A stretch of DNA of 32,000 bases, taken from an uncultured Chloroflexia bacterium. GTDB lineage: Bacteria > Chloroflexota > Anaerolineae > Anaerolineales > Anaerolineaceae. The stretch covers positions 3,840,001-3,872,000 of the forward strand of contig OY969938.1 of assembly GCA_963704755.1 (NCBI GenBank). The letters are read 5' to 3'. Under the pieces are notes generated by a model. It had not been told where the DNA came from and did no database searches. It was given only the letters and a program-made list of their open reading frames with translations. Shown here in pieces: positions 1-32,000 of the stretch. How positions within the stretch are numbered: the first letter of the stretch is position 1; each line of letters starts with the position of its first letter. The position numbers and the translations under genes are program-made.

Positions 1-1
1 G

Positions 2-370
2 GATGGCCTGAACGGCCAAATGAAACCGCTCAAGGGCAGCCATGTATTGGTCTTGGGGGCGGCTTACAAACCCGATATCGATGACCTGCGTGAGTCGCCG
101 GCCCTGGATGTAATCCACTTGCTGCGCGCAAAAGGCGCCCTGGTGGAATACCACGATCCCTACGTTGCCAGCCTGATTTCTGATGATATCGTGATGAAAT
201 CGGTCCCCGATTTGATGACAGCGGTCCGGGATGCGGATTGTGTGGTGATTGTAACCAACCACAAAAAATACGATTACAATGCCATTTTGGAAAATGCTCG
301 TTTGGTTATTGATACTCGAAATGCCCTGGGTAAACAAGGGCGGGACAATCCCAAAGTTGTGAGGCTGTAG
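2..370 (+). CDS. Nucleotide-sugar dehydrogenase (UDP-glucose/GDP-mannose dehydrogenase family), C-terminal fragment; 5-prime end lies outside the window
   Basis: The frame is open from base 2 (DGLNGQ precedes the first Met). VLVLGAAYKPDIDDLRESPALDV...YHDPY matches the C-terminal UDP-binding domain pattern of this family. Stop TAG at 368-370. Confidence 0.8.
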   Translation, partial: DGLNGQMKPLKGSHVLVLGAAYKPDIDDLRESPALDVIHLLRAKGALVEYHDPYVASLISDDIVMKSVPDLMTAVRDADCVVIVTNHKKYDYNAILENARLVIDTRNALGKQGRDNPKVVRL

Positions 371-372
371 TT

Positions 373-3826: not shown

Positions 3827-3852
3827 AAGTATCTTTAAGCCGGAGATCGCAC

Positions 3853-7335: not shown

Positions 7336-7413
7336 GGTCTCGAATTCGAGTATTTCTTAGGCCGGCCCAGTGAATTCGCCTGACGCGGGATTTCCTTTGT
7401 ATAATAACTCTCA

Positions 7414-12315: not shown

Positions 12316-12363
12316 CGGAGAGCCCGTTGACGATCTATCAGGCGATGCCCGACAGGCTCTACG

Positions 12364-12372
12364 ATTTTAACA
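12364..12372 (-). promoter_or_regulatory. Candidate extended -10 element TGTTAAAAT upstream of the Wzz-like gene
   Basis: The reverse complement of ATTTTAACA reads TGTTAAAAT, about 40 nt upstream of the TTG start. No convincing -35 was seen. Confidence 0.35.
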
Positions 12373-12403
12373 CCGTTTGGCGGAACCCAAACCCTGCTTG
12401 TAC

Positions 12404-12442
12404 GCAGGATCAAGGCAATGTAAAGCATTGCCTTGATCCTGC
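12404..12442 (-). terminator. Perfect 17-bp hairpin just downstream of the lipoprotein gene (putative terminator without a U-tract)
   Basis: GCAGGATCAAGGCAATG-taaag-CATTGCCTTGATCCTGC lies 10 nt after the stop at 12453. No U-run follows it on either strand. Confidence 0.45.
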
Positions 12443-12452
12443 AAAGAAAAGA

Positions 12453-13148
12453 CTATTGGACGGATTGGATTTTAGTATCCATGATTTGCGCCACGCTGGC
12501 AGCGTCGATCACCGGGGAGCCGCCGTTGGGGTAAAAGGTCAGGGCCAGTTGGACCACGCTACCGCGGCGCGAGATCACGGTCTGGCCGGCGATACTGGCG
12601 TAGCTTCCCTGGGTGAGCGTGTCCAGAACCAGGGATGAATCGCCGATGGTATCCGTGGGATGCTCGGTCAGGGTGGTGTTGGGCGCGTTGGGCGCAATGC
12701 TGTTAATCACGCGGGTCGAATCGTGCAGGAAAACGTCGAATGCGATCTTCTCCAGGGTGGTCAAGGACCCGACCACCACCGAGACGACGACCTCGTTGGA
12801 GGTCGGGTCGAGGAAGGCGGCGTAGTTTTCGGTGGTCACGTTGCTCATATTGGCGCTGATGCCGTCCGCGAAGGTGCGGTAGGAAATGCCCATTTGTTGC
12901 AACTCGGCGTCGGAGGCTTCGCGGAAGCCGGAGGGAAGGTCGCTCAGTTCGAGACGGACGCCGGCTAAGCCGGCCGGTGTCGCCGTGGCCGCGGACGTGG
13001 AATCACCGGGTTGGACCGCGGTAGGTGCGGCGGTCGCGGGAGCCGCGGCGGCGGTGGCTGCCTGCGAACTCACTTTGGACAGGTTGCAGCTCAGCCCGAC
13101 CAGGGCCAAAAGCGTGATGGCAATCAAAATGCGAAACTTGGGTCGCAT
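12453..13148 (-). CDS. Secreted lipoprotein of unknown function with an Ala/Thr/Pro-rich linker
   Basis: The ATG at 13148 is preceded by GGAGA. The signal peptide MRPKFRILIAITLLALVGLSC carries a lipobox-like LSC. The ORF-track start at 13232 adds a non-signal extension. Confidence 0.6.
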   Translation of the reverse strand: MRPKFRILIAITLLALVGLSCNLSKVSSQAATAAAAPATAAPTAVQPGDSTSAATATPAGLAGVRLELSDLPSGFREASDAELQQMGISYRTFADGISANMSNVTTENYAAFLDPTSNEVVVSVVVGSLTTLEKIAFDVFLHDSTRVINSIAPNAPNTTLTEHPTDTIGDSSLVLDTLTQGSYASIAGQTVISRRGSVVQLALTFYPNGGSPVIDAASVAQIMDTKIQSVQ

Positions 13149-13230
13149 GTTTTTTTCTCCTTTCCCTTGCTTGTTAGGGTGTTCGCATTCTATCATTAGT
13201 TGGGCAATGCTACCAATCCCAGGAGTTTTC

Positions 13231-13381
13231 ACCGCAGAGACGCAGAGGGCGCGGAGAGGATTAAAACCACGGAGGCACGGAGTTCACGGAGAAGAAAAGG
13301 AGAAGAGTATAACCGCAGAGGCGCAGAGGGCGCGGAGAGGATTATAACCACGGAAGCACGGAGTTCACGGAGAAGTAAAGG
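13231..13381. repeat. Two tandem direct copies (period 81 bp) of a CACGGAG/GCAGAGG-rich repeat
   Basis: Copy 1 (13231-13300) and copy 2 (13312-13381) share ACCGCAGAGrCGCAGAGGGCGCGGAGAGGATTAwAACCACGGArGCACGGAGTTCACGGAGAAG with only a few mismatches. Confidence 0.9.
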
Positions 13382-13410
13382 GTTTACGAAAAGGGGTGAA
13401 GTTTTTAAGT

Positions 13411-13490
13411 GATCGGCCCGGTCTCCAGACCGAGGCCGCTCTTCCTGGCCGGCCAATAAGAGCGGCCTCGGTCTGGAGACCGGGCCGATC
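13411..13490. repeat. Perfect 33-bp inverted repeat (hairpin/cruciform) with a 14-nt loop
   Basis: GATCGGCCCGGTCTCCAGACCGAGGCCGCTCTT (13411-13443) is exactly complementary to 13458-13490. Each arm also contains its own palindrome, CGGTCT-NN-AGACCG. Confidence 0.95.
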
Positions 13491-13520
13491 CACTTTAGGC
13501 TAATATTATTTTAAATAATA

Positions 13521-13571
13521 CTTTTTCTTCTTTTCTTTCTTTTCTCCGTGTCCTCTGTGCCTCCGTGGTTA
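13521..13571. repeat. Inverted partial copy of the 13231-13381 repeat
   Basis: The reverse complement reads TAACCACGGAGGCACAGAGGACACGGAGAAAAGAAAG... This aligns with AACCACGGAGGCACGGAGTTCACGGAGAAGAAAAGG of the direct copies. Confidence 0.75.
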
Positions 13572-13659
13572 TTTTCCTCCGTAGTTAAATCTTCCTTTTC
13601 TGTGTTCTCTTCGCCTATAATTTATATATAAGTGTTGACATGGAAGGAGAACAAATCTG

Positions 13660-14625
13660 ATGGAATATTGCAATCTCGGCCGGACCGGCCTGAGTGTTTC
13701 TCGCCTGTGCCTGGGGTCGATGCAGTTTGGCTGGACGGCGGACGAGCCGGCTTCGCACCAGGTGCTTTCGGCGGCCTATGACGCCGGCGTTACCTTTATC
13801 GACACCGCGGATGTGTATTCTCGCTGGGTGGAGGGCAACCCGGGCGGGGTCGCCGAAACGATCATCGGGAATTGGATGCAGCAAAGCAAAATCCCCAGGG
13901 ACCGGTTGGTGATCGCTACCAAGGTGCGCCACCCCACCGGCGAGGGGACCAATGACCAGGGTCTTTCGCGGGTCCACATCCTGCGGGCCGTGGAGGGCTC
14001 GCTGCGCCGGCTGAAGACCGATACCATCGATCTTTACCAGGCGCACGCTTTCGATGCCAATGTGCCTATCGAGGAAACCTTGCGGGCCTTCGATGACCTG
14101 GTCCACCAGGGCAAGGTGCGGTATATCGGCGCATCCAACTACCCGACCTGGCGGCTGATGCAGGCACTGTGGACCTCTGAGCGCGAGCGCCTGGTCTCAT
14201 ACAACAGCTTGCAGCCGCACTATAACCTGGTCAACCGGGCCGAATTCGAACGCGAACTGGCGGACGTCTGCCAGGTATACGGCCTGGGCGTGATCCCCTA
14301 CAGCCCGCTGGCCGGTGGTTTTTTGACCGGTAAGTACCGGCCCGAACAAAAAGAAATCGGCAGCCAGCGCCAACATACCGCGGCTCGCTATTTCAAAGAC
14401 AGCAATTGGGCCATCCTGGCAAAACTGGAAGAGGTCGCCGGGCGGCACAATGCCAGTATTTCGCAGATCGCCCTGGCCTGGCTGTTGACCCGCAAGGAAG
14501 TCACCAGCCCGATCATCGGGCCGCGCACACTGGAGCAATTGCAAGATAATTTGAAAGCGCTGGACGTGGCCTTGACTCCCACAGACCTGGAGGAAATCGA
14601 TCAGGCCAGCAGTTGGAAAGCTTGA
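13660..14625 (+). CDS. Aldo/keto reductase family oxidoreductase
   Basis: 321 aa. MEYCNLGRTGLSVSRLCLGSMQFGW, IDTADVYS and YIGASNY blocks are typical of the AKR family. GGAGA RBS upstream. Confidence 0.9.
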   Translation: MEYCNLGRTGLSVSRLCLGSMQFGWTADEPASHQVLSAAYDAGVTFIDTADVYSRWVEGNPGGVAETIIGNWMQQSKIPRDRLVIATKVRHPTGEGTNDQGLSRVHILRAVEGSLRRLKTDTIDLYQAHAFDANVPIEETLRAFDDLVHQGKVRYIGASNYPTWRLMQALWTSERERLVSYNSLQPHYNLVNRAEFERELADVCQVYGLGVIPYSPLAGGFLTGKYRPEQKEIGSQRQHTAARYFKDSNWAILAKLEEVAGRHNASISQIALAWLLTRKEVTSPIIGPRTLEQLQDNLKALDVALTPTDLEEIDQASSWKA

Positions 14626-14629
14626 GACA

Positions 14630-14682
14630 CCCGAATTAAAACATTAGCGGGCGCTTTGCGCCCGCTAATGTTTTAATTCGGG
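14630..14682. terminator. Bidirectional terminator hairpin between convergent genes (25-bp perfect stem, 3-nt loop)
   Basis: CCCGAATTAAAACATTAGCGGGCGC-ttt-GCGCCCGCTAATGTTTTAATTCGGG fills almost all of the 62-nt gap between the AKR stop (14625) and the metG stop (14688). Confidence 0.7.
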
Positions 14683-14687
14683 TAACT

Positions 14688-16484
14688 TTATAGCGCGACC
14701 GGTTTTCCCAGGCGGGCGCGTTCTTCTTCGATAATCGAGGCATCCAGTTTCTTGTAGAGCGGCTCGGGTTTAAGGAACTTGTGCCCGGGGGCTAATTGGC
14801 TGGGCTCCCAACGGCCGCTGGCCTGGCTGCCGTCGTAGCGCAAAACAGTGTGGCTGCCAACCTCATCGCTGATCTCTTCGGTGTAGGAGCTGCCGAAGAT
14901 AGGCGTCTCGTAACCCAGGAAGGTGTGCAGTTTCTCGCAAGTGAAGGGCAGGAAGGGGGCCAGCAGGATCTTGAGCGAGTCGATGGCCCGCATGGCGGTG
15001 TAGATGGCTCGCGCCGCGGCTTGTCGATCGGTCTTGATTGCGGTCCAGGGGGCGGTCTGGTCGAGGTATTTGTTCACCTCGGTGGCCAGGCGCATGGCCT
15101 CCCCCAGGGCGGCGCGCAGGTGCACGGCTTCGATGGACTGGCTGACGGTGGCGAAACCGCCCTCCACGGCTGCCAGCAGGTCCAGGTCGATCTGGGTCAG
15201 TTGGCCGGGGTCGGGGACGACGCCCTCCCAGTACTTGAAAGCGAAGGAAAGCACCCGGTTGGCCAGGTTGCCCCAGGTAGCCACCAACTCGTCGTTATTG
15301 CGGTGGTAGAAGTCGTCCCAATCCCAATCGGTATCCCGGTTTTCGGGCATATTGACCGTCAGGTAATAGCGCAGTGGATCAGGGTCGTAGCGGGATAGGA
15401 AATCGCGGGCGTAAACTGCCCAGTTGCGGCTGCCGGAGATCTTCTGGCCTTCCAGGTTCATAAACTGATTGGCCGGCACGTCAAAGGGCAGCACCAGGCG
15501 GCTGCCTTTTTCGCCCGAATAAATCTCCATGAACTGCTCGCCGATCCCCATCAGTTGGGCCGGCCAGAAAGCAGCGTGGAAGAAGATGTTGTCTTTGCCG
15601 ATGAAATAGAAAGATTTGGCAGCCTGGTTGGTCCACCATTCTTTCCATGCTTCGGTCTGGCCGTTCAGCCGGGCCCATTCGATGGATGCGGAAAGGTAAC
15701 CGATGACCGCCTCGAACCAGACGTACAGGCACTTGCCCTCCCAGCCCTCCAGCGGGACGGGGATGCCCCAATCCAGGTCGCGGGTGATCGAGCGCGGTTT
15801 CAGCCCCTCGGAATCGATCTGGCCCAGGGATTGTCCGCTGACCGTCTCACGCCAGTAGCTTTTGCGTTCGCGCAAAAAGCTCTCTACCTCGGGTTCCAGC
15901 TTGGAAAGGTCCAGGTAGAAATGCTCGGTTTCACGCAGCTCGGGGGTCGAGCCGTCGATCTTCGAGCGCGGGTTGATCAGTTTTTCGGGCTCGAGGACGT
16001 TGCCGCAGTGGTCGCACTGGTCCGAGCGGGCGCCTTCGAAGCCGCAAATATAGCAGGTGCCTTCGACGTAGCGGTCGGGCAAGAAGCGTTTACTGAAGGG
16101 CGAATACCACTGTGGGTGAACTTCACGCAGCAGAAAGCCGTTTTGTAGCAGGGCTAGAAAGGTCGTTTGGGAGACCTTGAAATGATTCTGGGTGTGTGTG
16201 GTGGTAAACAGGTCATACTGGATGCCCAGTTGCAGGAACAAATCGATAAACCCGCTGTGGAAGCGCTTGTAAATTTCTTCCACCGGTTTGTTCTCGGCAT
16301 CCGCGCGGATAGTGACGGGCGTCCCGTGAGAATCGGTACCGGAGACCATCAGAACGTCGTTCCCTTTCAGGCGATGGTAGCGCGCGGAGATATCGCCGGG
16401 CAGGTGAGAGCCGGTGACATTCCCGACGTGGATTTCGGCGTTGGCGTAAGGCCACGCGATGGCAACTAAGATATGGTCAGTCAT
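14688..16484 (-). CDS. metG: Methionine--tRNA ligase
   Basis: The ATG at 16484 (MTDHILVAIAWPYANAEIHVGN, HIGH-type motif) is preceded by AGAGGTG. It has the zinc knuckle CYICGFEGARSDQCDHCG and the KMSKS-type motif KISGS. The ORF-track start at 16526 adds 14 unlikely residues. Confidence 0.95.
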   Translation of the reverse strand: MTDHILVAIAWPYANAEIHVGNVTGSHLPGDISARYHRLKGNDVLMVSGTDSHGTPVTIRADAENKPVEEIYKRFHSGFIDLFLQLGIQYDLFTTTHTQNHFKVSQTTFLALLQNGFLLREVHPQWYSPFSKRFLPDRYVEGTCYICGFEGARSDQCDHCGNVLEPEKLINPRSKIDGSTPELRETEHFYLDLSKLEPEVESFLRERKSYWRETVSGQSLGQIDSEGLKPRSITRDLDWGIPVPLEGWEGKCLYVWFEAVIGYLSASIEWARLNGQTEAWKEWWTNQAAKSFYFIGKDNIFFHAAFWPAQLMGIGEQFMEIYSGEKGSRLVLPFDVPANQFMNLEGQKISGSRNWAVYARDFLSRYDPDPLRYYLTVNMPENRDTDWDWDDFYHRNNDELVATWGNLANRVLSFAFKYWEGVVPDPGQLTQIDLDLLAAVEGGFATVSQSIEAVHLRAALGEAMRLATEVNKYLDQTAPWTAIKTDRQAAARAIYTAMRAIDSLKILLAPFLPFTCEKLHTFLGYETPIFGSSYTEEISDEVGSHTVLRYDGSQASGRWEPSQLAPGHKFLKPEPLYKKLDASIIEEERARLGKPVAL

Positions 16485-16516
16485 ACTGCACCTCTGATTA
16501 TGGGATCGACAGCCGA

Positions 16517-16525
16517 ATTTTATCA
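16517..16525 (-). promoter_or_regulatory. Candidate extended -10 element TGATAAAAT for metG
   Basis: The reverse complement of ATTTTATCA lies about 33 nt upstream of the metG ATG. The -35 is weak. Confidence 0.4.
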
Positions 16526-16579
16526 TGATTCGCCTGCCTGCACCTGCCGCGGTGAGCCGCCGGGCGATTTTGAAAGAGG

Positions 16580-16624
16580 GAACCGGAGTTTATATGAGGC
16601 TTTGCCTCATATAAACTCCGGTTC
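16580..16624. repeat. Perfect 21-bp hairpin with a 3-nt loop
   Basis: GAACCGGAGTTTATATGAGGC-ttt-GCCTCATATAAACTCCGGTTC lies upstream of the metG promoter region. TTTTCG follows it on the plus strand. Confidence 0.85.
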
Positions 16625-17036
16625 TTTTCGCGTCCGAAATGGTATCGACCGGGTTTTGGGTTGTTAACCTTTTCATAACCTGGTCTTGCCCTACTCTTAA
16701 TCTCGAAAGGGTATATTTTTATCAGGCAACCATCCTGATCCAGATAGGGGTGTAGTTCTGGAAGGTGAGTTGAGAGAGACAAGATTGGGTTATAGGTTGG
16801 TGTGGAAAAAGCAAATTCGGGCTGCTTTTTCCCGTTTAAAGAAGAGATGTGTTCGGGATGGATACGTCCCAAACAGGGTTACTTGAGACGGTCGAAGGGC
16901 GTATCTCTGAAAGACAAAATAAAAGGGCGATTATTGAGGCGTTGGCATGCCAAACTCAGGGCACGCGAAGTGCGCCCTGATGGGAATAAGGTGACCTTGC
17001 TATCTAAACCGGGTTCTAAAATTGGTGTTGAAGAGC

Positions 17037-17059
17037 GGGCTCGGTCTGGAGACCGGCCC
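17037..17059. repeat. Third copy of the GGCC-CGGTCT-NN-AGACCG-GGCC palindromic motif
   Basis: GGGCTCGGTCTGGAGACCGGCCC is near-identical to the arm sequence of the 13411-13490 hairpin (GGCCTCGGTCTGGAGACCGGGCC). Confidence 0.8.
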
Positions 17060-17121
17060 GAACATTGGAATATTAAATCCCATTGTCTGGATTCTTTATT
17101 GAATTGTAAATACTAATGAGA

Positions 17122-17172
17122 AGGGTATTTTTATTTTACGCGTGCAAAGCACGCGTAAAATAAAAATACCCT
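17122..17172. repeat. Perfect 24-bp hairpin with a 3-nt loop
   Basis: AGGGTATTTTTATTTTACGCGTGC-aaa-GCACGCGTAAAATAAAAATACCCT. A T9 run follows at 17201-17209. Confidence 0.85.
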
Positions 17173-17227: not shown

Positions 17228-17391
17228 GGAAATCCGGGCAGGGCAATCGCATCATGCCAATTTAGTCCCAACAGAGAGATAATTTTGAGTGTTATTGTGA
17301 GGCGTAGCCCCACAATAACACTCAAAAACCCATTCTTTGGGGAATTGCCCTCGAAAAGCAGGCAGGCTGCAATCACCCTGGAAATCCGGGC
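17228..17391. repeat. Nested repeat structure (direct repeat / inverted repeat / central hairpin), MITE-like
   Basis: The 12-nt direct repeat GGAAATCCGGGC (17228-17239 and 17380-17391) encloses the 8-bp inverted repeat AGGGCAAT/ATTGCCCT (17240-17247 and 17344-17351). That in turn encloses a hairpin at 17283-17327 (17-bp perfect stem plus a GGC-gta-GCC apex). Confidence 0.6.
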
Positions 17392-19771: not shown

Positions 19772-19883
19772 GTAACTGCTCAGCCCAGCGGGGATGAAAC
19801 CCGAATTTGATGTACGTGCGGGGGCTCCGCCCCCGCACGTACATCAAATTCGGGAACTTCTTAACAGAAGCCTGAGCAGTTAC
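19772..19883. repeat. Nested inverted-repeat element: a 12-bp outer inverted repeat enclosing a perfect 26-bp hairpin (probable terminator of the GNAT gene)
   Basis: The outer repeat is GTAACTGCTCAG (19772-19783) with CTGAGCAGTTAC (19872-19883), flanked by A-runs. The inner hairpin is CCCGAATTTGATGTACGTGCGGGGGC-tcc-GCCCCCGCACGTACATCAAATTCGGG (19800-19854). Confidence 0.8.
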
Positions 19884-20720: not shown

Positions 20721-21576
20721 ATGGGGGAGTATGATTTTGCGATTTTCCATTCGGCGGCCAAAGCTGTATTGGCCGGCCTGAGTCCATATTCCGTTTATGA
20801 TTTTAATGGCCCATATCCACTGGCCGTCCTGTTCATTCCCTTTAGTTTTTTGCCCCAACACCTGGCCTATGCCTTGTTTGTGGCTCTCAATGTAATTTTA
20901 GTACTGGTCTTATTTAAGAAAAAAAGCGCTCTGGCCTTTACTCTCGTTCCCCATCCTTTTCACGCTTTTCGTCGGCCAGATCGATTTGCTTTTGGCTTTA
21001 TTGGCCAGTCTCAACGTACCCTGGTTGCTGGGTTTATTGATTGTCAAGCCCCAGGTTGCTTTTATCGCTGCACCATTTTTAATCCGCACGTTGGACAAAA
21101 AAGGCTGGATCCAGGCCGCTGCCAGCGCCCTGGCCCTGGCCTTGATCAGCTTCATAATCCGGCCGGATTGGGTTCAATTGTGGCTTTCCGGTAAACCTAC
21201 GTTTGAGGCGTACTCGGTGCGCACCTCCAACCTTTTTTGGCTCGTCCCGGCCGGGTTCATGAATTTCAGAGTTATCCTCAACCTGGCGGTTGCCGGGGTG
21301 GTCTTCGTGGTATGCATTATTTTCGTGCGTTCCAGGAAGATTTCATGGCCGGTCCTGGCGTTAGTTCAGCCGCTCAGCAATATCTATTCGGTGGCGGTGC
21401 TGGCAGAATGGTTTGGCCCGCTGGAAGCCGTCGTGTCCTGGCTGCCGGTGTTAGTCACCGGCGGGGATATCCACCATGGCATGCCCATGTTCCTGGCCAG
21501 CCTGGTGGTCCTGGTGCGGCAGTTTTTGAAGCATGAGAAAGCGGAGCCACTGGGTGAAACTGCCCAGGCTACTTAG
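20721..21576 (+). pseudogene. GT87/DUF2029-like polytopic membrane glycosyltransferase interrupted by a frameshift at an A7 run
   Basis: The N-terminal piece (frame of 20721) is YDFAIFHSAAKAVLAGLSPYSVYDFNGPYPLAVLFIPFSFL. After the A7 run (20919-20925) that frame becomes non-membrane junk. The +1 frame, open from 20902, continues as KKALWPLLSFPILFTLFVGQIDLLLALLASL...KPQVAF and stays hydrophobic through to 21576. Confidence 0.65.
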
Positions 21577-23709: not shown

Positions 23710-24438
23710 ATGAAAGTATTCAAAAAGCTTACCGTCCTGGCCCTCCTGCTGGCGCTCTTGCTGCCGGCCTTTTCGGCCCAGGCCGATGGCGGCACAACGC
23801 TTTATCTGCCCCTGGTTGCGCAATACAAAGCTTCTCCCAACCCGGTCCACCAGGGCCAGGCGACTTATTACAATGCCACCGGCAGCGGCGCTTGCCTGTT
23901 CGACGCATCGCCGGATGATTTGATGGTGGCCGCTTTGAACGCACCGGATTACGATAACGCCGCCTGGTGCGGGGCTTATGTGCACGTCAATGGCCCAACC
24001 GGAGAGGTGACCGTTCGTATTGTCGATTTATGCCCGGAATGCAAATCCGGTGACCTGGATTTGAGCAAAGAGGCCTTTGCCCAGATCGCGAATTTGTCTG
24101 CCGGGCGGGTCTCGATTAGCTGGCAGGTAGTCAGCCCGGCGTTGAGCGGCCCAATCGAATATCATTTCAAGGATGGCAGCAACCAGTGGTGGACGGCCGT
24201 GCAGATCCGCAACCATCGCAACCCGATCACCAAATTTGAATATTTCACCGGTGGAAGTTGGGTCGAGGTTCCCCGCACATCGTACAACTATTTCGTGCAG
24301 ACCAATCCGGGCATGGGGGTGGGACCCTATCGTTTCCGCGTCACCGACCTGTATGGCGTCGTGCTCGAGGATAGTGACATTCCCCTGACGGTCGATGGCA
24401 CAGTCGCAGGAAGCGCCCAATTCCCTGCCGGCCCTTAG
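23710..24438 (+). CDS. Secreted bacterial expansin (EXLX1/YoaJ-like; DPBB domain D1 plus CBM63-like D2)
   Basis: The signal peptide is MKVFKKLTVLALLLALLLPAFSAQA. D1 reads GQATYYNATGSGACLFD...CGAYVHVNGPTGEVTVRIVDLCPECKSGDLDLSKEAFAQIA...ISWQVV. D2 has SNQWWTAVQIRNH and YNYF aromatics. The layout parallels Bacillus subtilis EXLX1. Confidence 0.85.
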   Translation: MKVFKKLTVLALLLALLLPAFSAQADGGTTLYLPLVAQYKASPNPVHQGQATYYNATGSGACLFDASPDDLMVAALNAPDYDNAAWCGAYVHVNGPTGEVTVRIVDLCPECKSGDLDLSKEAFAQIANLSAGRVSISWQVVSPALSGPIEYHFKDGSNQWWTAVQIRNHRNPITKFEYFTGGSWVEVPRTSYNYFVQTNPGMGVGPYRFRVTDLYGVVLEDSDIPLTVDGTVAGSAQFPAGP

Positions 24439-24521
24439 CGTCTGGGTCGATCGGGGGATTTGTCATCCACAGTTAATCCATGTGTGAGAAGATTGGCGGT
24501 GAACAAAACCTTTCCACTCGA

Positions 24522-24530
24522 TGTTATAAT
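24522..24530 (+). promoter_or_regulatory. Candidate extended -10 promoter element TGTTATAAT for the sulfotransferase gene
   Basis: A perfect TGnTATAAT lies about 118 nt upstream of the ATG at 24648. Confidence 0.4.
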
Positions 24531-24647
24531 AGCCCGGCTTACGTGTCAGTTTTTTCCCGAAAACGTTGGCCAAACACATCGCAACTGACCACCTCTTCGC
24601 TCTATTAAGGGGAGTAGTACTAAAGAATTTGGATTGAGATTTGGATA

Positions 24648-25442
24648 ATGTCGATTGATCAAACGGCCAAGAAGCCGGTCATATTATTAGCGGGCATGCC
24701 TCGCGCGGGGACAACTTGGTTTTTCTATTTATTAACCGACCTGTGGAAAACGGCGGGGGGCGAGGACGCCCGTGATTTACGCTCCGCATATCATCTTGAA
24801 AGGTATATGAGCCGGGGGAGTGCAAACATTGCTACCGTTCTCCCGGATATGTACAAGGTGCTCGGGCCCTACCGGCAGGGGCATACTTACGTGCTCAAAA
24901 CCCACGATTCGCCCGCGGTTCACCGCAAGCGGCTTCTGTCGCAAATCGTAATGCGCCGTTTAATCGACCGGGGGATATTCAAACCGCTGTACATTTATCG
25001 CGACCCCCGCGATGCCATCCTTTCGGCCTACGAATATGGTATCCGGCGAAAAGAATCTGGCAACCCGAACATGTTCTCGGTCAAAGTCCAATCGATCGAC
25101 ATGGGAATCAATTGGATGGCGGTCGAGCCATTGGTCAACATGAATTACTGGCGCAACATGCCGGGCATCTATGTAACCAGCTACGAAGATTTAACCGCGA
25201 ATTATTTTGAGCGGACTGCCAAAGTGATCGACTACCTGGGGCTGGATAACGATTCGGAAGCCGTGCAGGCCGTCATTCAAAAATATAGGCCGGGTGTCCG
25301 TGCAGGAGAATCCCCGGTCGGCATGCATTTCTATAAAGGCGTGGCCGGCCGCTTTAATGAGGTTTTCAGCGAATCCCAGAAGACTTGCTGTAAAGAGCGC
25401 TTCGGCGAAGTTTTGGAAGAGCTGGGCTACCCGCTGGAATAA
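24648..25442 (+). CDS. Sulfotransferase-family protein (PAPS-dependent type)
   Basis: 264 aa. It has the 5-prime-PSB-like motif GMPRAGTTWFF, the 3-prime-PB-like motif YIYRDPRDAILSAY and a C-terminal HFYKGVAGRFNEVF block. Confidence 0.8.
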   Translation: MSIDQTAKKPVILLAGMPRAGTTWFFYLLTDLWKTAGGEDARDLRSAYHLERYMSRGSANIATVLPDMYKVLGPYRQGHTYVLKTHDSPAVHRKRLLSQIVMRRLIDRGIFKPLYIYRDPRDAILSAYEYGIRRKESGNPNMFSVKVQSIDMGINWMAVEPLVNMNYWRNMPGIYVTSYEDLTANYFERTAKVIDYLGLDNDSEAVQAVIQKYRPGVRAGESPVGMHFYKGVAGRFNEVFSESQKTCCKERFGEVLEELGYPLE

Positions 25443-25556: not shown

Positions 25557-26156
25557 TCAATTTCCGATGGTGCCGCGATCCTCAATCGGTTCGCCGATCA
25601 TTCGTTGACCGCCGTTGTCGTGGCATTGGCTGCAGAAATCGATTTGCTCGCCATGTGATTTGTGGCAGGTGCTGCAGGCGAGTTCCCCATTATGGGAATC
25701 GTGAGGGTTCCTGTATAAGTAGTCGGTGAGTTCGGCAACATGCTCGTATGAAATGTGGCATTTGAGGCACATCTGGTCGTCGAACTGCCGCTGGGCCAGG
25801 TTGCCGCTCTCGTCCACCGTATAATTGCCGGTGATAAACTTGATTCCCAATTCGATCTCGGCCGTCAGGGGGTAGTCGTGGCAATCTTTGCACTGTACCC
25901 CGGCCTGTTGGTGGACGTGATCGAGATTAGAAGATGTCTGGTAGGATGTAACGTTAGCCTGCATGATGTGACAGGTGGCGCAGAAGGTAGAATTGGTGTC
26001 GGAGAGATGGACTACATAAGACCCGGCAATGAACAGGACGATAACGACCGCCACCGCGATATTGGCACCGATACTAATTTTTGGCCAATTAAGCTTTTTC
26101 CTGGGTTGACTCCCTTTGGACTCAGGGGTTTCGAGTATTGGATCTTCTTGTGACAT
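25557..26156 (-). CDS. Membrane-anchored multihaem c-type cytochrome, NapC/NirT/CymA-like, with five CXXCH motifs
   Basis: 199 aa. It has one N-terminal TM helix (ISIGANIAVAVVIVLFIAGSYVV) and the haem motifs CATCH, CKDCH, CLKCH, CSTCH and CSQCH. Confidence 0.85.
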   Translation of the reverse strand: MSQEDPILETPESKGSQPRKKLNWPKISIGANIAVAVVIVLFIAGSYVVHLSDTNSTFCATCHIMQANVTSYQTSSNLDHVHQQAGVQCKDCHDYPLTAEIELGIKFITGNYTVDESGNLAQRQFDDQMCLKCHISYEHVAELTDYLYRNPHDSHNGELACSTCHKSHGEQIDFCSQCHDNGGQRMIGEPIEDRGTIGN

Positions 26157-26189
26157 GATAGCCTTAATGGTTCGAGAGGTATAAATCAG

Positions 26190-26251
26190 AAAAAAGAAGC
26201 CTGGTAGAGGCCCAGACCTGTCGGTCTGATTTGAGTAAGGTCTCTACCAGG
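26190..26251 (-). terminator. Intrinsic-terminator-like hairpin between the reductase and cytochrome genes
   Basis: On the minus strand, CCTGGTAGAGA...(internal CAGACC/GGTCTG hairpin)...CCTCTACCAGG is followed by CTTCTTTTTTCTG. Alternative pairings are possible: AGACCT (26214-26219) with AGGTCT (26238-26243), or CAGACC (26213-26218) with GGTCTG (26223-26228). Confidence 0.5.
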
Positions 26252-26271
26252 AAGAGGGACAAAAAGATGGT

Positions 26272-28013
26272 TTATGCCGCCGAAGTGGCCCCTTTGGCAA
26301 TGTCGCGACCGGTTGTATAACCAAAAGTCACACAAGTCGCGCCAAGGTTCCCACCGCAGGTGAGGAAGTTGTAGATATTTCCCCAGAAATCACCGACCAT
26401 TGTGCCGACATTGTACAAGCCGGGGATTGGCTGGTCGTTCTCATCACATACCTGCATGTTGATATCTGTACGCAAGCCGCCCAAGACCGTCAGGAAATCA
26501 GGGGTGTCATCTTCTACGCCATAGAACGGAGCCGCTTGAATGGGGAAGAGCAAATCCTTGCGTTTGAAGAAATCCTCATCAACCCCTTTTGTACAAAGTT
26601 CATTGTAACGATCTACAGTGGCTTTCGCCGTATCCGCGGGTAAGCCCAATTTCTGGATTACCTCTTCGATGGTATCGGCCTTTACCAGAGTGCCACTCTC
26701 CACCTGTTTCTCCCAATTTGCGACGATATTCTCTGGAGGAACAGGATCCGCACCATATTTCATCCCAAATGTATGCCAGGGAGCTGCATTTTCTGCATAA
26801 TTTGAATCCCAGATTGCATAGATCTTCATTTCGGGCTGGTGCATTTGGGTTATTCCGGCAAAGGACTGATTGATGTCTTCGTTCCCATAGCGAATCCCGT
26901 TTTTATTCAATAACAGACCTCGGTGGAACCCATACGGTAGGTTTTGGGGGGGATATGCCTGTTTGGCTGCGATCATCGGGGCATTAGGATAGGTTTTCTG
27001 CCAGGCTGCCCCCACCCATAGGCCCATTTTTTGGCCGTCTCCCGGGAAAATACCACCCCACTTAACGCCCGTATCGTATCCCTGTGATCCGGTATCGTAC
27101 AACAGCGGGAGTACGGTGGGACAATATTTTGCCATCATTTCCATGTCTGCTGAAAAGTCGCCAGTCGCCAGGACAATAGCGTTTGTCCCTACGTATTTAA
27201 CATATTTACCATCTTCACCCTTGGCAATGACTGCCGAGACCCGCCCAGTATTGTTATCTTCCCGGACAAGCTGTTCGGCCACCATCTGGTAGATGATTTG
27301 AACACCTGCATCGGTTGCCGTCTTTGCCAGGGTGTCAACCACAAACTGCTGGCCCGCACCAGTCATTTGCATGTCTTCACTTAACCAGCAATGTGAGCCG
27401 GCTGGTTGAAACATTGGTCCAAGGTTGGTATCTGTATTGCCGATCTCCAGCGCTGTTTCATATCCGGCCGCTTCCATTTTATCTATCAACCAGTTCATGG
27501 CTTCTTCGTCATATTTGGCATATTTCCACCATTTATCCTGGTCTACGTTGTATCCGGCAGCCGCCAACTCTTTTCGAATCCATTCATCCGGATCGGTAAT
27601 GGGCACGCCCATTTTTTGCATAAACTTGCTGTTCATGGCATGGTTCGAACCACCCCGTGAGATGTTCCCCTTGCTTGCGGAGATTAAACTTCTTTGGCAC
27701 CATTCTCGGCAGCCGAGTTGGCACATACCAATCCAGAGGTTCCTGCGCCAACGATGATAATATCGGCCGTTACCGTATTGGTGATCTCGCCATCGGGGAT
27801 TGGATCCGGAGGAATCTCGAAACTCCATTTTTGGGAAGCCATAGCCGCATTCATCTGCCCGGCAGTAACCTCATTTGCCGCGCTGGTGGGTTGAGCCGTA
27901 CTGGCAACCTTTGGGGAACAACTAATCAAGATCTCGCTACCAGCCACAACGGCTACCCCTTTGATAAAATCGCGCCTGGTCAAGCCATGCTTCTTGCTCT
28001 CGTTCTCACCCAT
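26272..28013 (-). pseudogene. Tat-exported lipoprotein FAD-dependent reductase (fumarate/urocanate-reductase flavoprotein family), split by a frameshift near 27685
   Basis: The N-terminal fragment (27684-28013) has an AAAAGGAGTGAAAG RBS, the Tat motif TRRDFIKG, a lipobox-like LISC and the Rossmann motif IIVGAGTSGL, then ends ...AENGAKEV*. The next frame continues LISASKGNISRGGSNH..., exactly where the paralog reads QLGAQVILLESQEKTGGNG. The C-terminus is ...GGNLGATCVTFGYTTGRDIAKG. Confidence 0.75.
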
Positions 28014-28063
28014 CTTTCACTCCTTTTCTCAATTATCAGAAATAAACTGCCTTCAATTTCTTT

Positions 28064-28136
28064 CAGGTTAACCAGGAGAGGCAATCCATCTTCCTTACGA
28101 CCGCCTTTTCCTGGGAGTTTCTTCCTGGTTAACCTG
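28064..28136. repeat. Perfect 14-bp inverted repeat between the two reductase paralogs
   Basis: CAGGTTAACCAGGA (28064-28077) pairs with TCCTGGTTAACCTG (28123-28136), separated by 45 nt. No U-tract on the minus strand. Confidence 0.8.
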
Positions 28137-28171
28137 ACTTTCTGTGAAAGATTTGCCTCTGCTGACGGCTA

Positions 28172-29728
28172 CTAAATCATTGCAACTGCATTCTTGGCTG
28201 CAGTCCTTCCGGAATTAATATTGTGACCATTCATAGACCCCGGTTTATTGATGGTGTATGTCTCCCGATACATCTCGCATGCATCTGTCCCCACCGAATA
28301 GAGGCCGGGAACAGCCACTCCAGCCCCATCTATGACCTCCATCTTGCGATTGATTCGAATCCCGCCAATCGATGTGGCATAACCTATATTTTGCCCAAAG
28401 ATGTAATATGGAGGCTTTGTCAAAGCAACCATCATTTCGGTTGGTTTATTAAAATCTTCGTCGGCGCCTTTGTCGCATAATTCGTTGTAGTGGCTGATTG
28501 TGGCAGCGAGCGAAGTTGGATCGATCCCGGCTTTGGTGGCCAGTTCTTCGATCGTATCCGCCTTGAAAAAGACCTTGTTTTCGTTTTTGGTGATGGCGTC
28601 CTCGACATCGTCGATCAAAGTATCGGCATTGCTGGAAAGTTTTTCAATGAGACCATGATCAACGACTGCAAAAGATTTCTCCTGTGAGGTAATCGCATTG
28701 ACGGCGTATGCGTCCATGTAAGTGGTGCCAATATCCTCCCTGACGTAGCGTTCACCATTTTCGTTAACCCATAAGGAATATTTCCCGTTTAGCTGTGATG
28801 CCACAGTCCCCAGGAAACTCAACCCATTAAAGGTCGGTACCCGCAAGAAAGTACGATTTGGAGTAACGTCCACACCGCCGGCGGAAAGGGCCATCCGTAA
28901 GCCATCGCCATTATGCCCGGGGTAGCCAATATATTTATTCTTCACCAGATCGTGCCCCCTGGCGCTCATCATCTCGGCATTTTGTGCATATCCGCCAGCA
29001 GCCAGAATTACGGCTTTACAATTAATTTGGAGCAAGGTTCCATCTGCTTTGGTCGCATAAATCCCCACGACCTTTCCGTCTTCCAGGATCAGATCACTCG
29101 CAGCAGTCTTGGTCAGGATCTGTACCCCTAATTCCTGGGCTTTGGCTGTCATCGGTTCGCCGTAATTGGTTCCCTTTCCGTCCTTCCACCAATGGAAGGA
29201 TTTGACAATGCCCATACCATGATAATCGTCCACCGTACCCGAGAAGAGCACACCGTTTTCTTGTAACCAATCGATGTTGTCGGCAGAGGCCTCAAACATA
29301 TCTTTCCAGAATAATGAATTCAAGCGGTAGTTGAAGGTCAGGTTTTCTTCGTCGACGACATCGATGAGTTTGAAGTCAATACCTGCATCCTTTTGCATCT
29401 TGCTTCCGGCTGCAAAGATGCCCTCTGTAGCCTGGCCATTCCCGCCTGTCTTCTCCTGAGATTCCAGCAGAATAACTTGTGCACCCAGTTGTGCAGCTTG
29501 AACCGTTGCGGCCAGACCGGAGTTTCCACCGCCCACGACGACAATGTCCGTTGATTGAGTTTCTGAAACGGCTGGCTTTGTTGCAACTGGTGTAGGCGAA
29601 GGTGCATCGCTGGAGATTTGCTTGGGGCTGCAACCTTCTAACAAACCAATGGTAGTAATGCTTGCCGCACCTACCGCGGCGTCCTTCAAAAACTTCCTTC
29701 GAGAAATCGTATTGCTTTTATTTTCCAT
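28172..29728 (-). CDS. Tat-exported lipoprotein FAD-dependent reductase (fumarate/urocanate-reductase flavoprotein family)
   Basis: The ATG at 29728 is preceded by GGAGGAAAGAGA. It has the Tat motif SRRKFLKDAAVGAA, a lipobox-like LLEGC, the Rossmann motif IVVVGGGNSGLAA...LLESQEKTGGNG and a C-terminal GGIRINRKMEVID...PGLYSVGT block. The ORF-track GTG at 29773 is an unsupported extension. Confidence 0.85.
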   Translation of the reverse strand: MENKSNTISRRKFLKDAAVGAASITTIGLLEGCSPKQISSDAPSPTPVATKPAVSETQSTDIVVVGGGNSGLAATVQAAQLGAQVILLESQEKTGGNGQATEGIFAAGSKMQKDAGIDFKLIDVVDEENLTFNYRLNSLFWKDMFEASADNIDWLQENGVLFSGTVDDYHGMGIVKSFHWWKDGKGTNYGEPMTAKAQELGVQILTKTAASDLILEDGKVVGIYATKADGTLLQINCKAVILAAGGYAQNAEMMSARGHDLVKNKYIGYPGHNGDGLRMALSAGGVDVTPNRTFLRVPTFNGLSFLGTVASQLNGKYSLWVNENGERYVREDIGTTYMDAYAVNAITSQEKSFAVVDHGLIEKLSSNADTLIDDVEDAITKNENKVFFKADTIEELATKAGIDPTSLAATISHYNELCDKGADEDFNKPTEMMVALTKPPYYIFGQNIGYATSIGGIRINRKMEVIDGAGVAVPGLYSVGTDACEMYRETYTINKPGSMNGHNINSGRTAAKNAVAMI

Positions 29729-29778
29729 TCTCTTTCCTCCAGATTTCGAATTTATAAAATGCTTTCTATTCACTCGTT

Positions 29779-30046
29779 CCCTCCACGCCTGTGGAGGCTA
29801 ACTTACCCAACTTTAACGATCGATACTTGTTACGATGACGAATCCACCTTTGCAATCGGATTGCGACGTTTTTAACATTCCCATCCCGCAAGCGACCATA
29901 TAAATATGGCAAAGGTGGATCATTGATCCGAGATTATTCTTTTACCCTCCACAATCTAATCTGATAATATAAGCCCCATTAAAAATCCAATACCACTGAG
30001 AGCCATAAAGCAAGGCGTTGAAAACGCCTCGCTGCAGGCCCTCCAC
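29779..30046. promoter_or_regulatory. Iterated CCCTCCAC octamers and palindromes in the reductase-regulator divergent control region
   Basis: CCCTCCAC occurs at 29779-29786, 29945-29952 and 30039-30046. The first copy is half of the hairpin CCTCCAC-gcct-GTGGAGG (29780-29797). There is a 12-bp inverted repeat ATCCACCTTTGC/GCAAAGGTGGAT (29842-29853 and 29909-29920). Palindromes are GCAATCgGATTGC (29852-29864), CCATATaaATATGG (29896-29909) and GGATCAtTGATCC (29917-29929). Confidence 0.5.
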
Positions 30047-30426
30047 TTATGGAATGTTTTCTTGTGGGTCGTTGTTAATTCGGCAATTTATACCTTTCAA
30101 TGATGAATGGCGTGTCTAACCCTTATCGAAAATTTAAACTAAAAACTGGAAAGCACATTACTCAGTAGCTTTCCCCCCTTCGGGCTTCAATATTTGAGGA
30201 CCATTTATTCGAACATTCGGAGATAGGGACTGGTGAGCATCTTCGTTTATTTCAAAGCACACTCCACCTATTTTTCTGCTTACCAGGTTAATAAGGAGTA
30301 CTTACACCTGGCGACCTCAAACCGATGAGCAATTCAGTGGAGCGTGTATTTAGCCATAGTATAGCCCCCATATCCCAGGCTCTAAATCACACACTGTGGG
30401 TGATCGGCATGTGATTTTAATGTGAT

Positions 30427-30481
30427 GGGGAGGCAAATCATAGAATATGCATAGGAAAATCAATATTCTATTTGTCTCCCC
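30427..30481. promoter_or_regulatory. Inverted 12-mers GGGGAGRCAAAT forming an imperfect long hairpin upstream of the regulator gene
   Basis: GGGGAGGCAAAT (30427-30438) pairs with ATTTGTCTCCCC (30470-30481, reverse complement GGGGAGACAAAT). An inner 9-bp stem is ATAGAATAT/ATATTCTAT. Confidence 0.45.
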
Positions 30482-30619
30482 TGAGTTCTAATGATAAGAT
30501 AGGTGCGTACCTTCTCTGTTTAGAAAACCCCCAGCTCTCTTGATAAGTAGTCACGGCTCTAGTGTAATTGGTCTATCAATTCACGATCTATTGGAATTTT
30601 AATGGCCTGATCCTCCTCA

Positions 30620-32000
30620 ATGAAAACAACAAGTGAAAATCCATTTATTCCTGAAGTTACGATCCAACCTTACCCGGCCACCAAACTACAGGTTCCGAAA
30701 TTAACCACTCCTAATGTGCAGCGGCCTCGCCTCCTCCAGGCCCTGAACAACGGAAGTAACAAGAAGGTTACACAAATCATAGCCCCTACAGGATATGGAA
30801 AAACGACCTTATTATCCAAGTGGCTATTAACAGTGCGATCGCTCAATTTTCTTTTCGCATGGATTACGCTCGATTCAAGCGATAACGATTTGCTTTCTTT
30901 CTGGATGTTATTGTTGAGCGGGATACGAAAAGCTTATCCGAACTTCGGAGTAAATGCCAAACAGATCCACAACGACCCAATCGATCTGGAAGAATATACT
31001 GTCCTTAATCCGTTCATCAATGAAATTGCACAGATCCCGTCGCAGGTGTATTTAATCCTGGATGATGTTCAGGAAATTACCGATAATCATATTTTTCAAA
31101 GTCTCTATTACCTGATCACTCATCAGCCTGCGAATATGCACCTTATTCTCTCCAGTCGTGAGAACCTGCAAATCCCATTGGCGCGGTTGCGTGTACAGGG
31201 ACAATTGGTGGAAATTAATTCCAGAGACCTGGCATTTACACAAGGCGAGGCTCGGGCGTTCCTTATTGAATGTATGAAGCTAAAGATCGAGCCCGAGCAA
31301 CTTCAGCAAATTATCGACACAACTGGTGGATGGATAGCCGGGCTGAAATTAGTTGCTTTTGCCATTAAGCAGCAAAACGATGCCCATTTTTTGGACAACC
31401 ATTTGGATTTAGGGAAGCAATGGATTCTGGAATATCTCACCGAGGAAGTTATCAATCGGCAAAGCGAGGATATTCGGAATTTCCTCTTGAAGACTTCGAT
31501 TTTATCCGATTTGTCTGCTCCTCTATGTGACGCCGTTCTCCAGCGGTCCGACAGCCAGGTTATTCTCCAGCAGATCGAAAAAGCCAATTTATTTATTGAT
31601 AATTTAGACGTAGAAAAGCATTGGTACCGTTACCAGGAATTATTTGCTCAACTGCTCAGAACTTTACTCGAGCGCACTCAACCCGAAATTGTTCCGGAAT
31701 TGCACCACCGGGCACATATCTGGCTAATCAGAAACGGTTATCCTGATAAGGCGATAACGCACGCCTTATCCCCGCAGGACCTTGAGAATACTGCCAAAAT
31801 GATGGATGAAAAAACCATCCAGGTCATCATCAAAAACGACCTGGTCGATTTTGTCCATTGGCTCGGTCGCTTTTCTAATAATCTCTTCGATAATTATCCC
31901 GATTTGTGTGTTCATTATGCCCTGGCAAATCTTGCTTCTGGGCGGTTCGCTGTGGCGGAAAAGGCTTTACAAAAGGCCGAAGACGTCCTCAACAACTTCG
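30620..32000 (+). CDS. MalT/LAL-family (large ATP-binding LuxR-type) STAND regulator, N-terminal 460 aa; 3-prime end lies outside the window
   Basis: This ORF is absent from the ORF track because it has no stop within the window. It is the first ATG after an in-frame TGA at 30608. It has Walker A APTGYGKTTL and Walker B YLILDDVQ, plus MalT-type blocks WITLDSSDNDLLSFW, TGGWIAGLKL, FLLKTSILSDLSAPLCDAV and LFIDNLDVEKHWYRYQELFAQLL. The frame stays open to 32000. Confidence 0.85.
   Translation, partial: MKTTSENPFIPEVTIQPYPATKLQVPKLTTPNVQRPRLLQALNNGSNKKVTQIIAPTGYGKTTLLSKWLLTVRSLNFLFAWITLDSSDNDLLSFWMLLLSGIRKAYPNFGVNAKQIHNDPIDLEEYTVLNPFINEIAQIPSQVYLILDDVQEITDNHIFQSLYYLITHQPANMHLILSSRENLQIPLARLRVQGQLVEINSRDLAFTQGEARAFLIECMKLKIEPEQLQQIIDTTGGWIAGLKLVAFAIKQQNDAHFLDNHLDLGKQWILEYLTEEVINRQSEDIRNFLLKTSILSDLSAPLCDAVLQRSDSQVILQQIEKANLFIDNLDVEKHWYRYQELFAQLLRTLLERTQPEIVPELHHRAHIWLIRNGYPDKAITHALSPQDLENTAKMMDEKTIQVIIKNDLVDFVHWLGRFSNNLFDNYPDLCVHYALANLASGRFAVAEKALQKAEDVLNNF

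Follow-up and report, generated by a model that had tools for sequence, protein, structure and literature searches.

A Predicted Quinol-Linked Flavin Reductase Module with a Pentahaem Cytochrome in an Anaerolineae Genome

We analyzed a stretch of 32,000 nucleotides from the genome of an uncultured Anaerolineae bacterium (hereafter the window), the right-hand end of which (positions 25557–32000) carries genes for a candidate extracytoplasmic reductase module. Three minus-strand genes lie here in the same direction, opposite a divergent regulator gene that starts at 30620; reading outward from the regulator, they encode a flavoprotein of 518 residues (reductase 1, 28172–29728), a second flavoprotein (reductase 2, 26272–28013) and a pentahaem c-type cytochrome of 199 residues (25557–26156). 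This layout, first described in an earlier note on the same DNA, is confirmed by the listing and translation of the open reading frames (ORFs).

The Reductases, the Cytochrome and the Regulator

Reductase 1 is intact and belongs to the FAD_binding_2 family (Pfam PF00890; 161.4 bits, E = 5e-47, cutoff 20.4), in keeping with the earlier note, which had read it as a flavin reductase. Its translation contains each of the motifs named there: a twin-arginine translocation (Tat) motif, SRRKFLK (residues 9–15), a lipobox-like LLEGC with Cys33, and GGGNSG. The protein also has a Pro/Ser/Thr-rich tether, and its ATG is preceded by a GGAGG Shine-Dalgarno sequence placed 7 nt to the 5' side. An identical protein, P0001, is encoded on a contig of 4,871,623 bp. 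The AlphaFold2 (AF2) model of reductase 1, with a predicted local distance difference test score (pLDDT) of 90.6, shows the two-domain fold of an FAD domain with a capping domain, and its top structural matches are UrdA (TM-scores 0.72/0.81) and Fcc3, the flavocytochrome c3 of Shewanella, followed by ketosteroid dehydrogenases.

That the proteins are conventional soluble fumarate or urocanate reductases of the FccA or UrdA type is the reading suggested by these matches, given that Fcc3 and UrdA rank first in the PDB by sequence as well as by fold and that homologs are labeled 'fumarate reductase flavoprotein subunit' in the source databases. The residues expected of such enzymes are missing, however. 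In Fcc3 these are the active-site residues His365, Arg402 (the proton donor), His504 and Arg545, along with Arg381 and Glu378 of the proton path. In pairwise HMMER alignments to Fcc3, as opposed to a structural superposition, His365 has no counterpart in reductase 1 (a gap), which carries Asn for Arg381, Tyr for Arg402 and Thr for His504, while reductase 2 carries Thr for both His504 and Arg545. In addition, reductases 1 and 2 score 178.8 and 143.9 bits, respectively, against the flavocytochrome c model TIGR01813, under its cutoff of 285.45, and Pfam detects neither an FMN_bind domain nor a fused haem domain on either protein. The earlier note had counted nesting within a characterized fumarate or urocanate reductase clade, with a complete catalytic residue set, against its reading; that set is absent from both proteins. 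With the Arg/His set of Fcc3 replaced in each, neither enzyme is, on these alignments, a fumarate or urocanate reductase, and we regard that identity as exceedingly improbable. Several clades of cinnamate reductases likewise lack the active-site arginines and have a conserved tyrosine in their place (bioRxiv 10.1101/2022.12.26.521950), and the loss of the Fcc3-type positions from reductases 1 and 2 agrees with this pattern. Within the family of reductase 1, a C-terminal motif, C484-x-x-Y487-R488-x-x-Y491, is conserved and the pocket positions are variable.

Reductase 2 had been taken for a single minus-strand gene with the motifs TRRDFIKG, LISC and GAGTSG. All three are present, as a Tat motif, a lipobox-like sequence with Cys32 and a dinucleotide-binding motif, and all lie within the N-terminal ORF, but the gene does not form one reading frame. 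It is split between two ORFs in different frames (27684–28013 and 26272–27828), and its N-terminal 109 codons stop at a TAA. The lesion is located at 27684–27688, where the minus strand reads GTT-TAA and homologs have Val-Leu: one base is missing at the T-run 27686–27688, which creates a premature stop at 27684–27686. The frameshift is seen both in protein alignments and in DNA comparison with three related loci (L001, L046 and L018). When one base is put back at 27686–27688, the result is a 580-residue protein whose alignment with intact homologs is continuous (ENGAKEV joined to LISASKGN, against ENGAKVVLISASKGN) and is 81–82% identical over its full length to two of them, P0241 and P0242. 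The C-terminal part matches FAD_binding_2 with 87.6 bits (E = 1.3e-24, cutoff 20.4), and the start codon and Shine-Dalgarno sequence of the gene are preserved.

The lesion raises the question of whether the locus is a decaying, non-functional remnant, with reductase 2 a true pseudogene in a recently acquired cassette that is being lost. Such decay would fit the presence of the same frameshift in the deposited assembly, where the gene call is a 454-residue C-terminal fragment (P0243), as well as the foreign composition described below, and intact paralogs elsewhere in the genome (P0252 and P0021) would make the loss tolerable. On the other hand, the lesion is single, the remainder of reductase 2 retains its high identity to intact homologs along with its start signals, and both reductase 1 and the cytochrome are intact. 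The window also contains a second frameshift, at an A7 run (20919–20925) in a gene for a GT87-like membrane glycosyltransferase (20721–21576, plus strand); its two ORFs (20721–21194 and 20986–21576), once joined, give a GT87 match (PF09594) that runs across the junction, while neither fragment alone has a Pfam match. Split genes further occur in four related loci from metagenome-assembled genomes (MAGs; L008, L030, L040 and L049), which together with the A7 frameshift suggests indel errors of assembly. Since two homopolymer frameshifts fall within 32 kb, assembly error is a serious possibility for reductase 2, and we place assembly artefact and true pseudogene at about even; that the cassette as a whole is a decaying remnant seems to us quite unlikely. 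Programmed frameshifting was considered and rejected, as there is no slippery heptamer, the homologs are continuous and the second homopolymer frameshift lies in an unrelated gene.

The earlier note had explained the presence of two reductases by a duplication, which the comparison does not bear out. Reductases 1 and 2 are just 25% identical to each other, and contig L001 carries the same pair (75% and 81% identity) in a different gene order, so we read them as two old subfamilies and not as the products of a recent duplication. Among the cytochrome-adjacent reductases of the related loci, those of L018 and L046 cluster with reductase 2, and none is closely related to reductase 1.

The minus-strand cytochrome has a single N-terminal transmembrane helix (residues 24–54), with basic residues ahead of it, and five CXXCH motifs, at residues 59, 89, 130, 161 and 175, just as the earlier note had described it. 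To this, profile hidden Markov models (HMMs) add a match to Cytochrom_NNT (PF03264) over residues 27–93 (33.7 bits against a cutoff of 24.1, profile positions 6–72 of 174) and one to Cytochrom_c3_2 over residues 122–180 (54.8 bits). The NapC/NirT-like N-terminal part comprises haems 1–2, with CXXCHxM as the first motif, and the Fcc3-like c3_2 part comprises haems 3–5; residues 123–180 can be aligned with the Shewanella Fcc3 haem domain (E = 3e-6). Across 24 homologs, no variation is seen in the five CXXCH motifs, in Met65, which completes the NrfH-type first-haem motif CXXCHxM, or in four more histidines. Because the membrane helix and NNT part stand together with a segment that aligns to the Fcc3 haem domain, the protein looks like a NapC/NirT/NrfH anchor with its first haems fused to an FccA-type haem domain. 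Its top NCBIfam match is Cgr1 (NF051471), at 60.4 bits over residues 74–181 against a cutoff of 340, so this cytochrome is no ortholog of Cgr1; the scores for NrfH, NapC/NirT and TorC are all far under their cutoffs (46 bits against 134 for TIGR03153 and 26.5 bits against 310.6 for TIGR02161). In the AF2 model of the cytochrome (pLDDT 56.9), the transmembrane helix is the one usable part.

The regulator gene runs from 30620 to 32000 on the plus strand and is cut by the end of the window after 460 N-terminal residues. This N-terminal half alone scores 296.6 bits against the NCBIfam MalT model (NF003420; profile positions 5–439 of 903, cutoff 537), and it contains the Walker A (GYGKTT) and Walker B (LILDD) motifs of the signal transduction ATPases with numerous domains (STAND), so that for the visible residues the earlier assignment to regulators of the type of MalT and the large ATP-binding LuxR-family proteins (LAL) holds. 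Pfam matches are weak (AAA_22, NPHP3_N and nSTAND5). The C-terminal LuxR/GerE helix-turn-helix region lies beyond the window; in seven full-length homologs (915–933 residues, 34–46% identity), TPR_MalT and GerE are found without exception.

Between reductase 1 and the regulator lies a putative divergent control region of 890 bp (29729–30619), which is AT-rich (GC 0.416). A 17-nt inverted repeat in this spacer (29976–29992 and 30589–30605, 94% complementary) has arms that are each placed in like orientation to the adjoining divergent gene, and is a candidate for an operator pair or for the ends of a small inserted element. A terminator-like hairpin with a T-run, identified by pattern match only, is located on the minus strand between the reductase 2 stop and the cytochrome start (26197–26219). 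In the consensus scan it consists of 8 pairs followed by CTTTTTTCTG; the region has nine such sites against 5.8 expected, and promoter and terminator consensus matches were not enriched over shuffled sequences.

Related Loci and the Origin of the Reductases

Searching 1.84 billion cluster representatives with a profile of the cytochrome gave 858 clusters at E ≤ 1e-3, of which 204 reached E ≤ 1e-10. Of the best 150 representatives, 107 were of plausible full length (160–260 residues), and in these five was the commonest number of CXXCH motifs (49 proteins). The closest sequences come from Anaerolineaceae and Chloroflexota MAGs, the protein being 72–75% identical to other Chloroflexota copies, and the family is, by these matches, typical of the Anaerolineae.

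A profile scan of genomes then provided 52 loci, nearly all from Chloroflexota, of which the 50 with an ORF-level cytochrome match are the basis of our counts. We scored a reductase gene as adjacent when an FAD_binding_2 gene lay on the same strand within 600 bp of the cytochrome gene, and found this arrangement in 28 of the 50, with two such genes in three loci. The adjacent reductases are diverse and, grouped at 45% identity, make up at least 10 clusters; an RR motif is present in 28 of 31 and a lipobox-like Cys in 23. MalT-like genes of about 920 residues stand beside the pair in approximately 11 loci, and the proteins that were checked (six of these and the L001 homolog) all contain TPR_MalT and GerE. 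These are triplets of reductase, cytochrome and LAL-type regulator such as the earlier note had suggested looking for.

In approximately eight loci, judged by gene order, the cytochrome gene is situated between ccm genes and tatA/tatC, an arrangement verified with Pfam in L016 (CcmE/F/H, an ATP-binding cassette (ABC) ATPase and TatC). In several Anaerolineaceae, ccmE-ccmF-ccmH and the ABC ATPase border the cytochrome gene at one end and tatA/tatC at the opposite end. The loci concerned (L013, L016, L017, L019, L031, L034, L041 and L004, with the cytochrome at about positions 9800–10600) have no adjacent reductase, and this ccm/tat-flanked cytochrome looks like a core housekeeping copy.

Two other settings bear on the reductases themselves. 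On contig L001 (5055–15437), the homolog of reductase 2 is followed by that of reductase 1, together with a third FAD_binding_2 gene (697 residues), a MarR gene and a MalT/GerE regulator; the 16 kb seen contain no cytochrome gene. Three contigs with relatives of reductase 1 were also examined, and two of them, one labeled Syntrophomonas and one an NCBI metagenome, encode, along with the reductase, a 180-residue pentahaem cytochrome built in the same way. On each of the three, the divergent regulator belongs to the LysR type and not to the MalT type.

The earlier note had called the system an orphan on an AT-rich island that was probably acquired horizontally, and these claims fared differently. 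The contig that carries the module also encodes at least two further cytochrome paralogs (P0136, 69% identity; P0172, 61%) and at least two further reductase paralogs (P0021, 52% identical to reductase 1; P0252, intact and 63% identical to reductase 2). Because of these copies, we read the module as one of several in this Anaerolineae genome, and the description as an orphan is abandoned. The composition of the block, by contrast, does deviate as described: its GC content is 0.473 (25557–32000) against 0.59 for positions 1–16526, and its tetranucleotide usage correlates with that of the remaining window at 0.74–0.77, whereas the other segments reach 0.88–0.91 among themselves. GC at third codon positions (GC3) is 0.526 in reductase 1, about 0.54 in reductase 2 and 0.49 in the regulator, against 0.64–0.80 in the other genes tested in the window, among them that for methionyl-tRNA synthetase (MetRS; 0.76). 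The cytochrome gene, at 0.635, is at the low end of that range and near the values of its neighbors.

We compared these values with the related loci. The homologous reductase pair of L001 is likewise low in GC (0.486–0.489 against about 0.57 in adjoining genes), whereas in 19 other Anaerolineae loci the cytochrome-adjacent reductases resemble their flanks (on average they differ by +0.013, and in no case is the value below −0.05). Because of the deviating GC3 and tetranucleotides, the low GC of the L001 pair and the match to flanks elsewhere, the data support horizontal and relatively recent movement of the reductase pair and the regulator to a site beside a resident cytochrome gene. A foreign origin of the whole block is not supported, since the cytochrome is of Anaerolineae type, 72–75% identical to the other Chloroflexota copies and close to its neighbors in GC3; composition thus backs the proposal of horizontal acquisition for the reductases and the regulator, but not for the cytochrome. 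Scans of the window for tRNAs and Rfam families gave zero matches, the window-wide search for repeats found no direct repeats flanking the block, whose right border is beyond the window end, and no integrase or transposase domain occurred among the part of the window ORFs that was scanned against Pfam.

Electron Flow and Comparison with Known Systems

We consider it likely that the locus encodes a reductase module, quinol-linked and extracytoplasmic, that serves one or several organic electron acceptors other than fumarate or urocanate. What carries this assignment was observed directly, namely the domain content, the motifs, the conservation within the families, the recurrent adjacency of cytochrome and reductase genes, and the lack of the fumarate/urocanate catalytic set; a quinol as donor, the direction of electron flow, lipidation, inducibility and the class of substrate are what we infer. 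Menaquinol would be oxidized at haem 1 of the membrane-anchored cytochrome, and its five haems would relay the electrons to the FAD of reductase 1, and also to that of reductase 2 if its gene is intact. The Tat system would carry the folded reductases across the membrane, an N-terminal lipid anchor would keep each of them at the outer face, and there the reduced FAD would in turn reduce the substrate at an activated C=C bond. Expression of the reductase genes is probably switched on by the divergent regulator, a cytoplasmic STAND protein of MalT type, once it has bound inducer and ATP, and the combination of a cytoplasmic sensor with an outward-facing enzyme suggests an inducer that is membrane-permeant or imported. 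The architecture described in the earlier note, with a membrane-anchored, NapC/NirT-like multihaem cytochrome, FAD_binding_2 reductases of Tat type and a MalT/LAL regulator, is supported and follows the logic of Cgr1/Cgr2 and of CymA-FccA.

Export and anchoring depend on the N-termini of the reductases. The Tat motif S/T-R-R-x-F-L-K is represented by SRRKFLK in reductase 1 and TRRDFIK in reductase 2; in a 65-member alignment, conservation is at least 90% at each of R10, R11, F13 and Cys33, and the 120 closest homologs include 113 with an RR motif and 91 with a lipobox-like Cys. LEGC or VEGC is present in P0003 and P0013 as well. Tat export and lipid anchoring of the reductases are thereby plausible. 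Several observations nevertheless weigh against the assignment. The Pfam TAT_signal model is under its cutoff for reductase 2 (18.3 against 22.7) and unreported for reductase 1. Neither lipobox, read manually against the pattern [LVI][ASTVI][GAS]C with an invariant Cys, satisfies the strict PROSITE-type definition, there being a Glu at −2 in reductase 1 (LEGC) and at −5 in reductase 2 (SEILISC). Further, the hairpin at 26197–26219 makes co-transcription of reductase 2 and the cytochrome uncertain, and reductase 2, the copy with relatives (in L018 and L046) that are the customary neighbors of the cytochrome, is frameshifted in the assembly.

The same components could in principle run in the oxidative direction, with a flavin dehydrogenase outside the cytoplasm, similar in type to those acting on ketosteroids or cyclohexanone, delivering electrons through the cytochrome to the quinone pool. 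Haem chains conduct both ways, and 3-ketosteroid and cyclohexanone dehydrogenases are structurally related to reductase 1, with TM-scores of 0.62–0.70. These dehydrogenases are nonetheless more distant than UrdA and Fcc3, the Anaerolineae are anaerobic and the locus has no obvious high-potential acceptor. Moreover, the characterized Tat-exported members that are paired with NapC/NirT-like cytochromes are all reductases (PMC5953540; bioRxiv 10.1101/2022.12.26.521950). We judge the oxidative direction to be very unlikely.

In kind, the module matches Cgr1/Cgr2 and the flavin reductases that gut bacteria secrete; its nearest relatives of solved structure are UrdA and FccA. The logic of a cytochrome-fed reductase has been proposed for Cgr1/Cgr2 of Eggerthella lenta, a species which also has a core-genome paralog of the Cgr1 cytochrome, Elen_2528 (PMC5953540), and secreted flavin reductases serve gut bacteria as substrate-induced respiratory enzymes (bioRxiv 10.1101/2022.12.26.521950). 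With Cgr1 and the [4Fe-4S]-dependent Cgr2, the module shares a membrane-anchored cytochrome of Cytochrom_c3_2 and NapC-NirT-like character, a Tat-type FAD_binding_2 reductase and a regulator of the LuxR family, and the core, ccm/tat-flanked copy of the cytochrome parallels Elen_2528. The likeness extends to the proteins, as Cgr1 heads the NCBIfam matches of the cytochrome and Eggerthellaceae have proteins about 50% identical to reductase 1. The module differs in having two unrelated reductases for one cytochrome and in its host, an environmental Chloroflexota lineage. Its cytoplasmic MalT-type STAND regulator is a further difference, as the sensors reported to adjoin 64 reductase genes in E. 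lenta are transmembrane proteins of LuxR type (bioRxiv 10.1101/2022.12.26.521950).

The CymA-FccA system offers a second comparison, in which the flavoprotein fold is shared at 24–27% identity, the cytochrome segment with haems 3–5 can be aligned with the haem domain of FccA, and the N-terminal part of the cytochrome resembles quinol dehydrogenases of NapC/NirT/CymA type. Here, however, the haem domain is carried on the membrane anchor and not on the flavoprotein, such that one pentahaem protein would combine the roles of CymA and of the FccA haem domain. The reductase lacks the catalytic Arg/His set and is a predicted lipoprotein, whereas FccA is soluble and periplasmic. To NrfH, NapC and NirT the cytochrome is linked by its N-terminal transmembrane helix, its CXXCHxM first haem motif and a Cytochrom_NNT score above cutoff; it departs from them in having five haems instead of four and a C-terminal half of c3_2/Fcc3 type, the NNT match covering only part of the profile.

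Among named families, the nearest to reductase 1 is VprA of Lactiplantibacillus plantarum (NF053717), its top NCBIfam match at 309 bits over profile positions 3–479 of 481. VprA is also the top named family for all ten relatives of reductase 1 tested (291–324 bits), and its divergent LysR regulator recurs beside the Firmicutes homologs of reductase 1. VprA acts on a non-carboxylate vinyl group, and such a substrate fits the loss of the carboxylate-binding Arg from reductase 1. The scores are about half of the equivalog cutoff of 600, however, the VprA profile starts past the signal peptide and tether of reductase 1, and the regulator here is of MalT type; we know of no partner cytochrome for VprA. 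Orthology of reductase 1 to VprA is ruled out, the whole clade scoring about 300 bits, and VprA is better described, from these scores, as a sister family of the entire reductase 1 clade that assigns no substrate to this gene. Reductase 2 scores 168 bits against the same model.

The relationship to VprA also gives some ground to an alternative physiology, in which the module would be a detoxification or redox-balancing sink for toxic unsaturated phenolics, such as vinylphenols, uncoupled from growth. All eleven members of the reductase 1 clade tested have VprA as their nearest named family, the divergent LysR regulator is common to VprA and the Firmicutes homologs, and with both quinol oxidation and substrate reduction at the outer face, the step alone would build no proton gradient. 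Set against this are the scores at half the equivalog cutoff, the variability of the pocket positions within the clade, and the finding that related gut-bacterial reductases sustain respiratory growth (bioRxiv 10.1101/2022.12.26.521950). A sink of this kind is in our estimation unlikely, and it differs from the quinol-linked reductase proposed above in physiology alone, the mechanism being the same.

Anaerolineae are usually regarded as fermenters. A broader picture, speculative and on present evidence unlikely, is that they possess a lineage-wide pentahaem quinol-dehydrogenase 'adaptor', with a core ccm/tat copy and further copies beside at least 10 subfamilies of Tat-lipoprotein flavin reductases, by which, in soils, sediments and digesters, they would respire a range of unsaturated organic compounds. 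In this picture, the clade of reductase 1 is an extracytoplasmic, cytochrome-fed counterpart of VprA that would act on non-carboxylate alkenes, for example lignin-derived vinylphenols. Secreted flavin reductases with small membrane cytochromes are now recognized as a means by which gut Eggerthellaceae and other bacteria respire dietary and host metabolites, and this locus and the 50 related loci indicate that the same type of module recurs and diversifies in environmental Anaerolineae; a full-text literature search found no paper describing such modules in this lineage. If active, the modules would add respiration of organic acceptors to the physiology of an abundant and poorly cultured group, and reductase 1, reductase 2 and the cytochrome are a concrete set of enzymes for testing. 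For this window the result is incremental, since the kind of system is already known.

Other Features of the Window

The cytochrome gene is adjoined by plus-strand genes (23710–25442) for a secreted double-psi beta-barrel (DPBB) protein, expansin- or lytic-transglycosylase-like, and a sulfotransferase, for which no link to the module was found. The glycan cluster contains two very large plus-strand ORFs, 3691–7335 (1214 residues) and 7414–10014 (866 residues), neither with a Pfam match, and the region of these ORFs (3691–10014) has a strong AT skew (−0.3 to −0.4).

Five long intergenic hairpins are located at 14629–14683, 16580–16624, 17122–17172, 17283–17327 and 19800–19854, one of them between the convergent genes for an aldo-keto reductase and MetRS. 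Four are perfect, and all have arms of 21–26 nt and 3-nt loops; the sequences are unrelated, the geometry is alike, and they could be terminators or elements resembling repetitive extragenic palindromes (REP). A palindrome with 40-nt arms (13411–13490, 95% complementary) adjoins 70-nt direct repeats (13231–13381), and a 31-nt copy of it, 94% identical, is found at 17031–17061; the stretches 13231–13490 and 17030–17084 hold a small repeated intergenic element.

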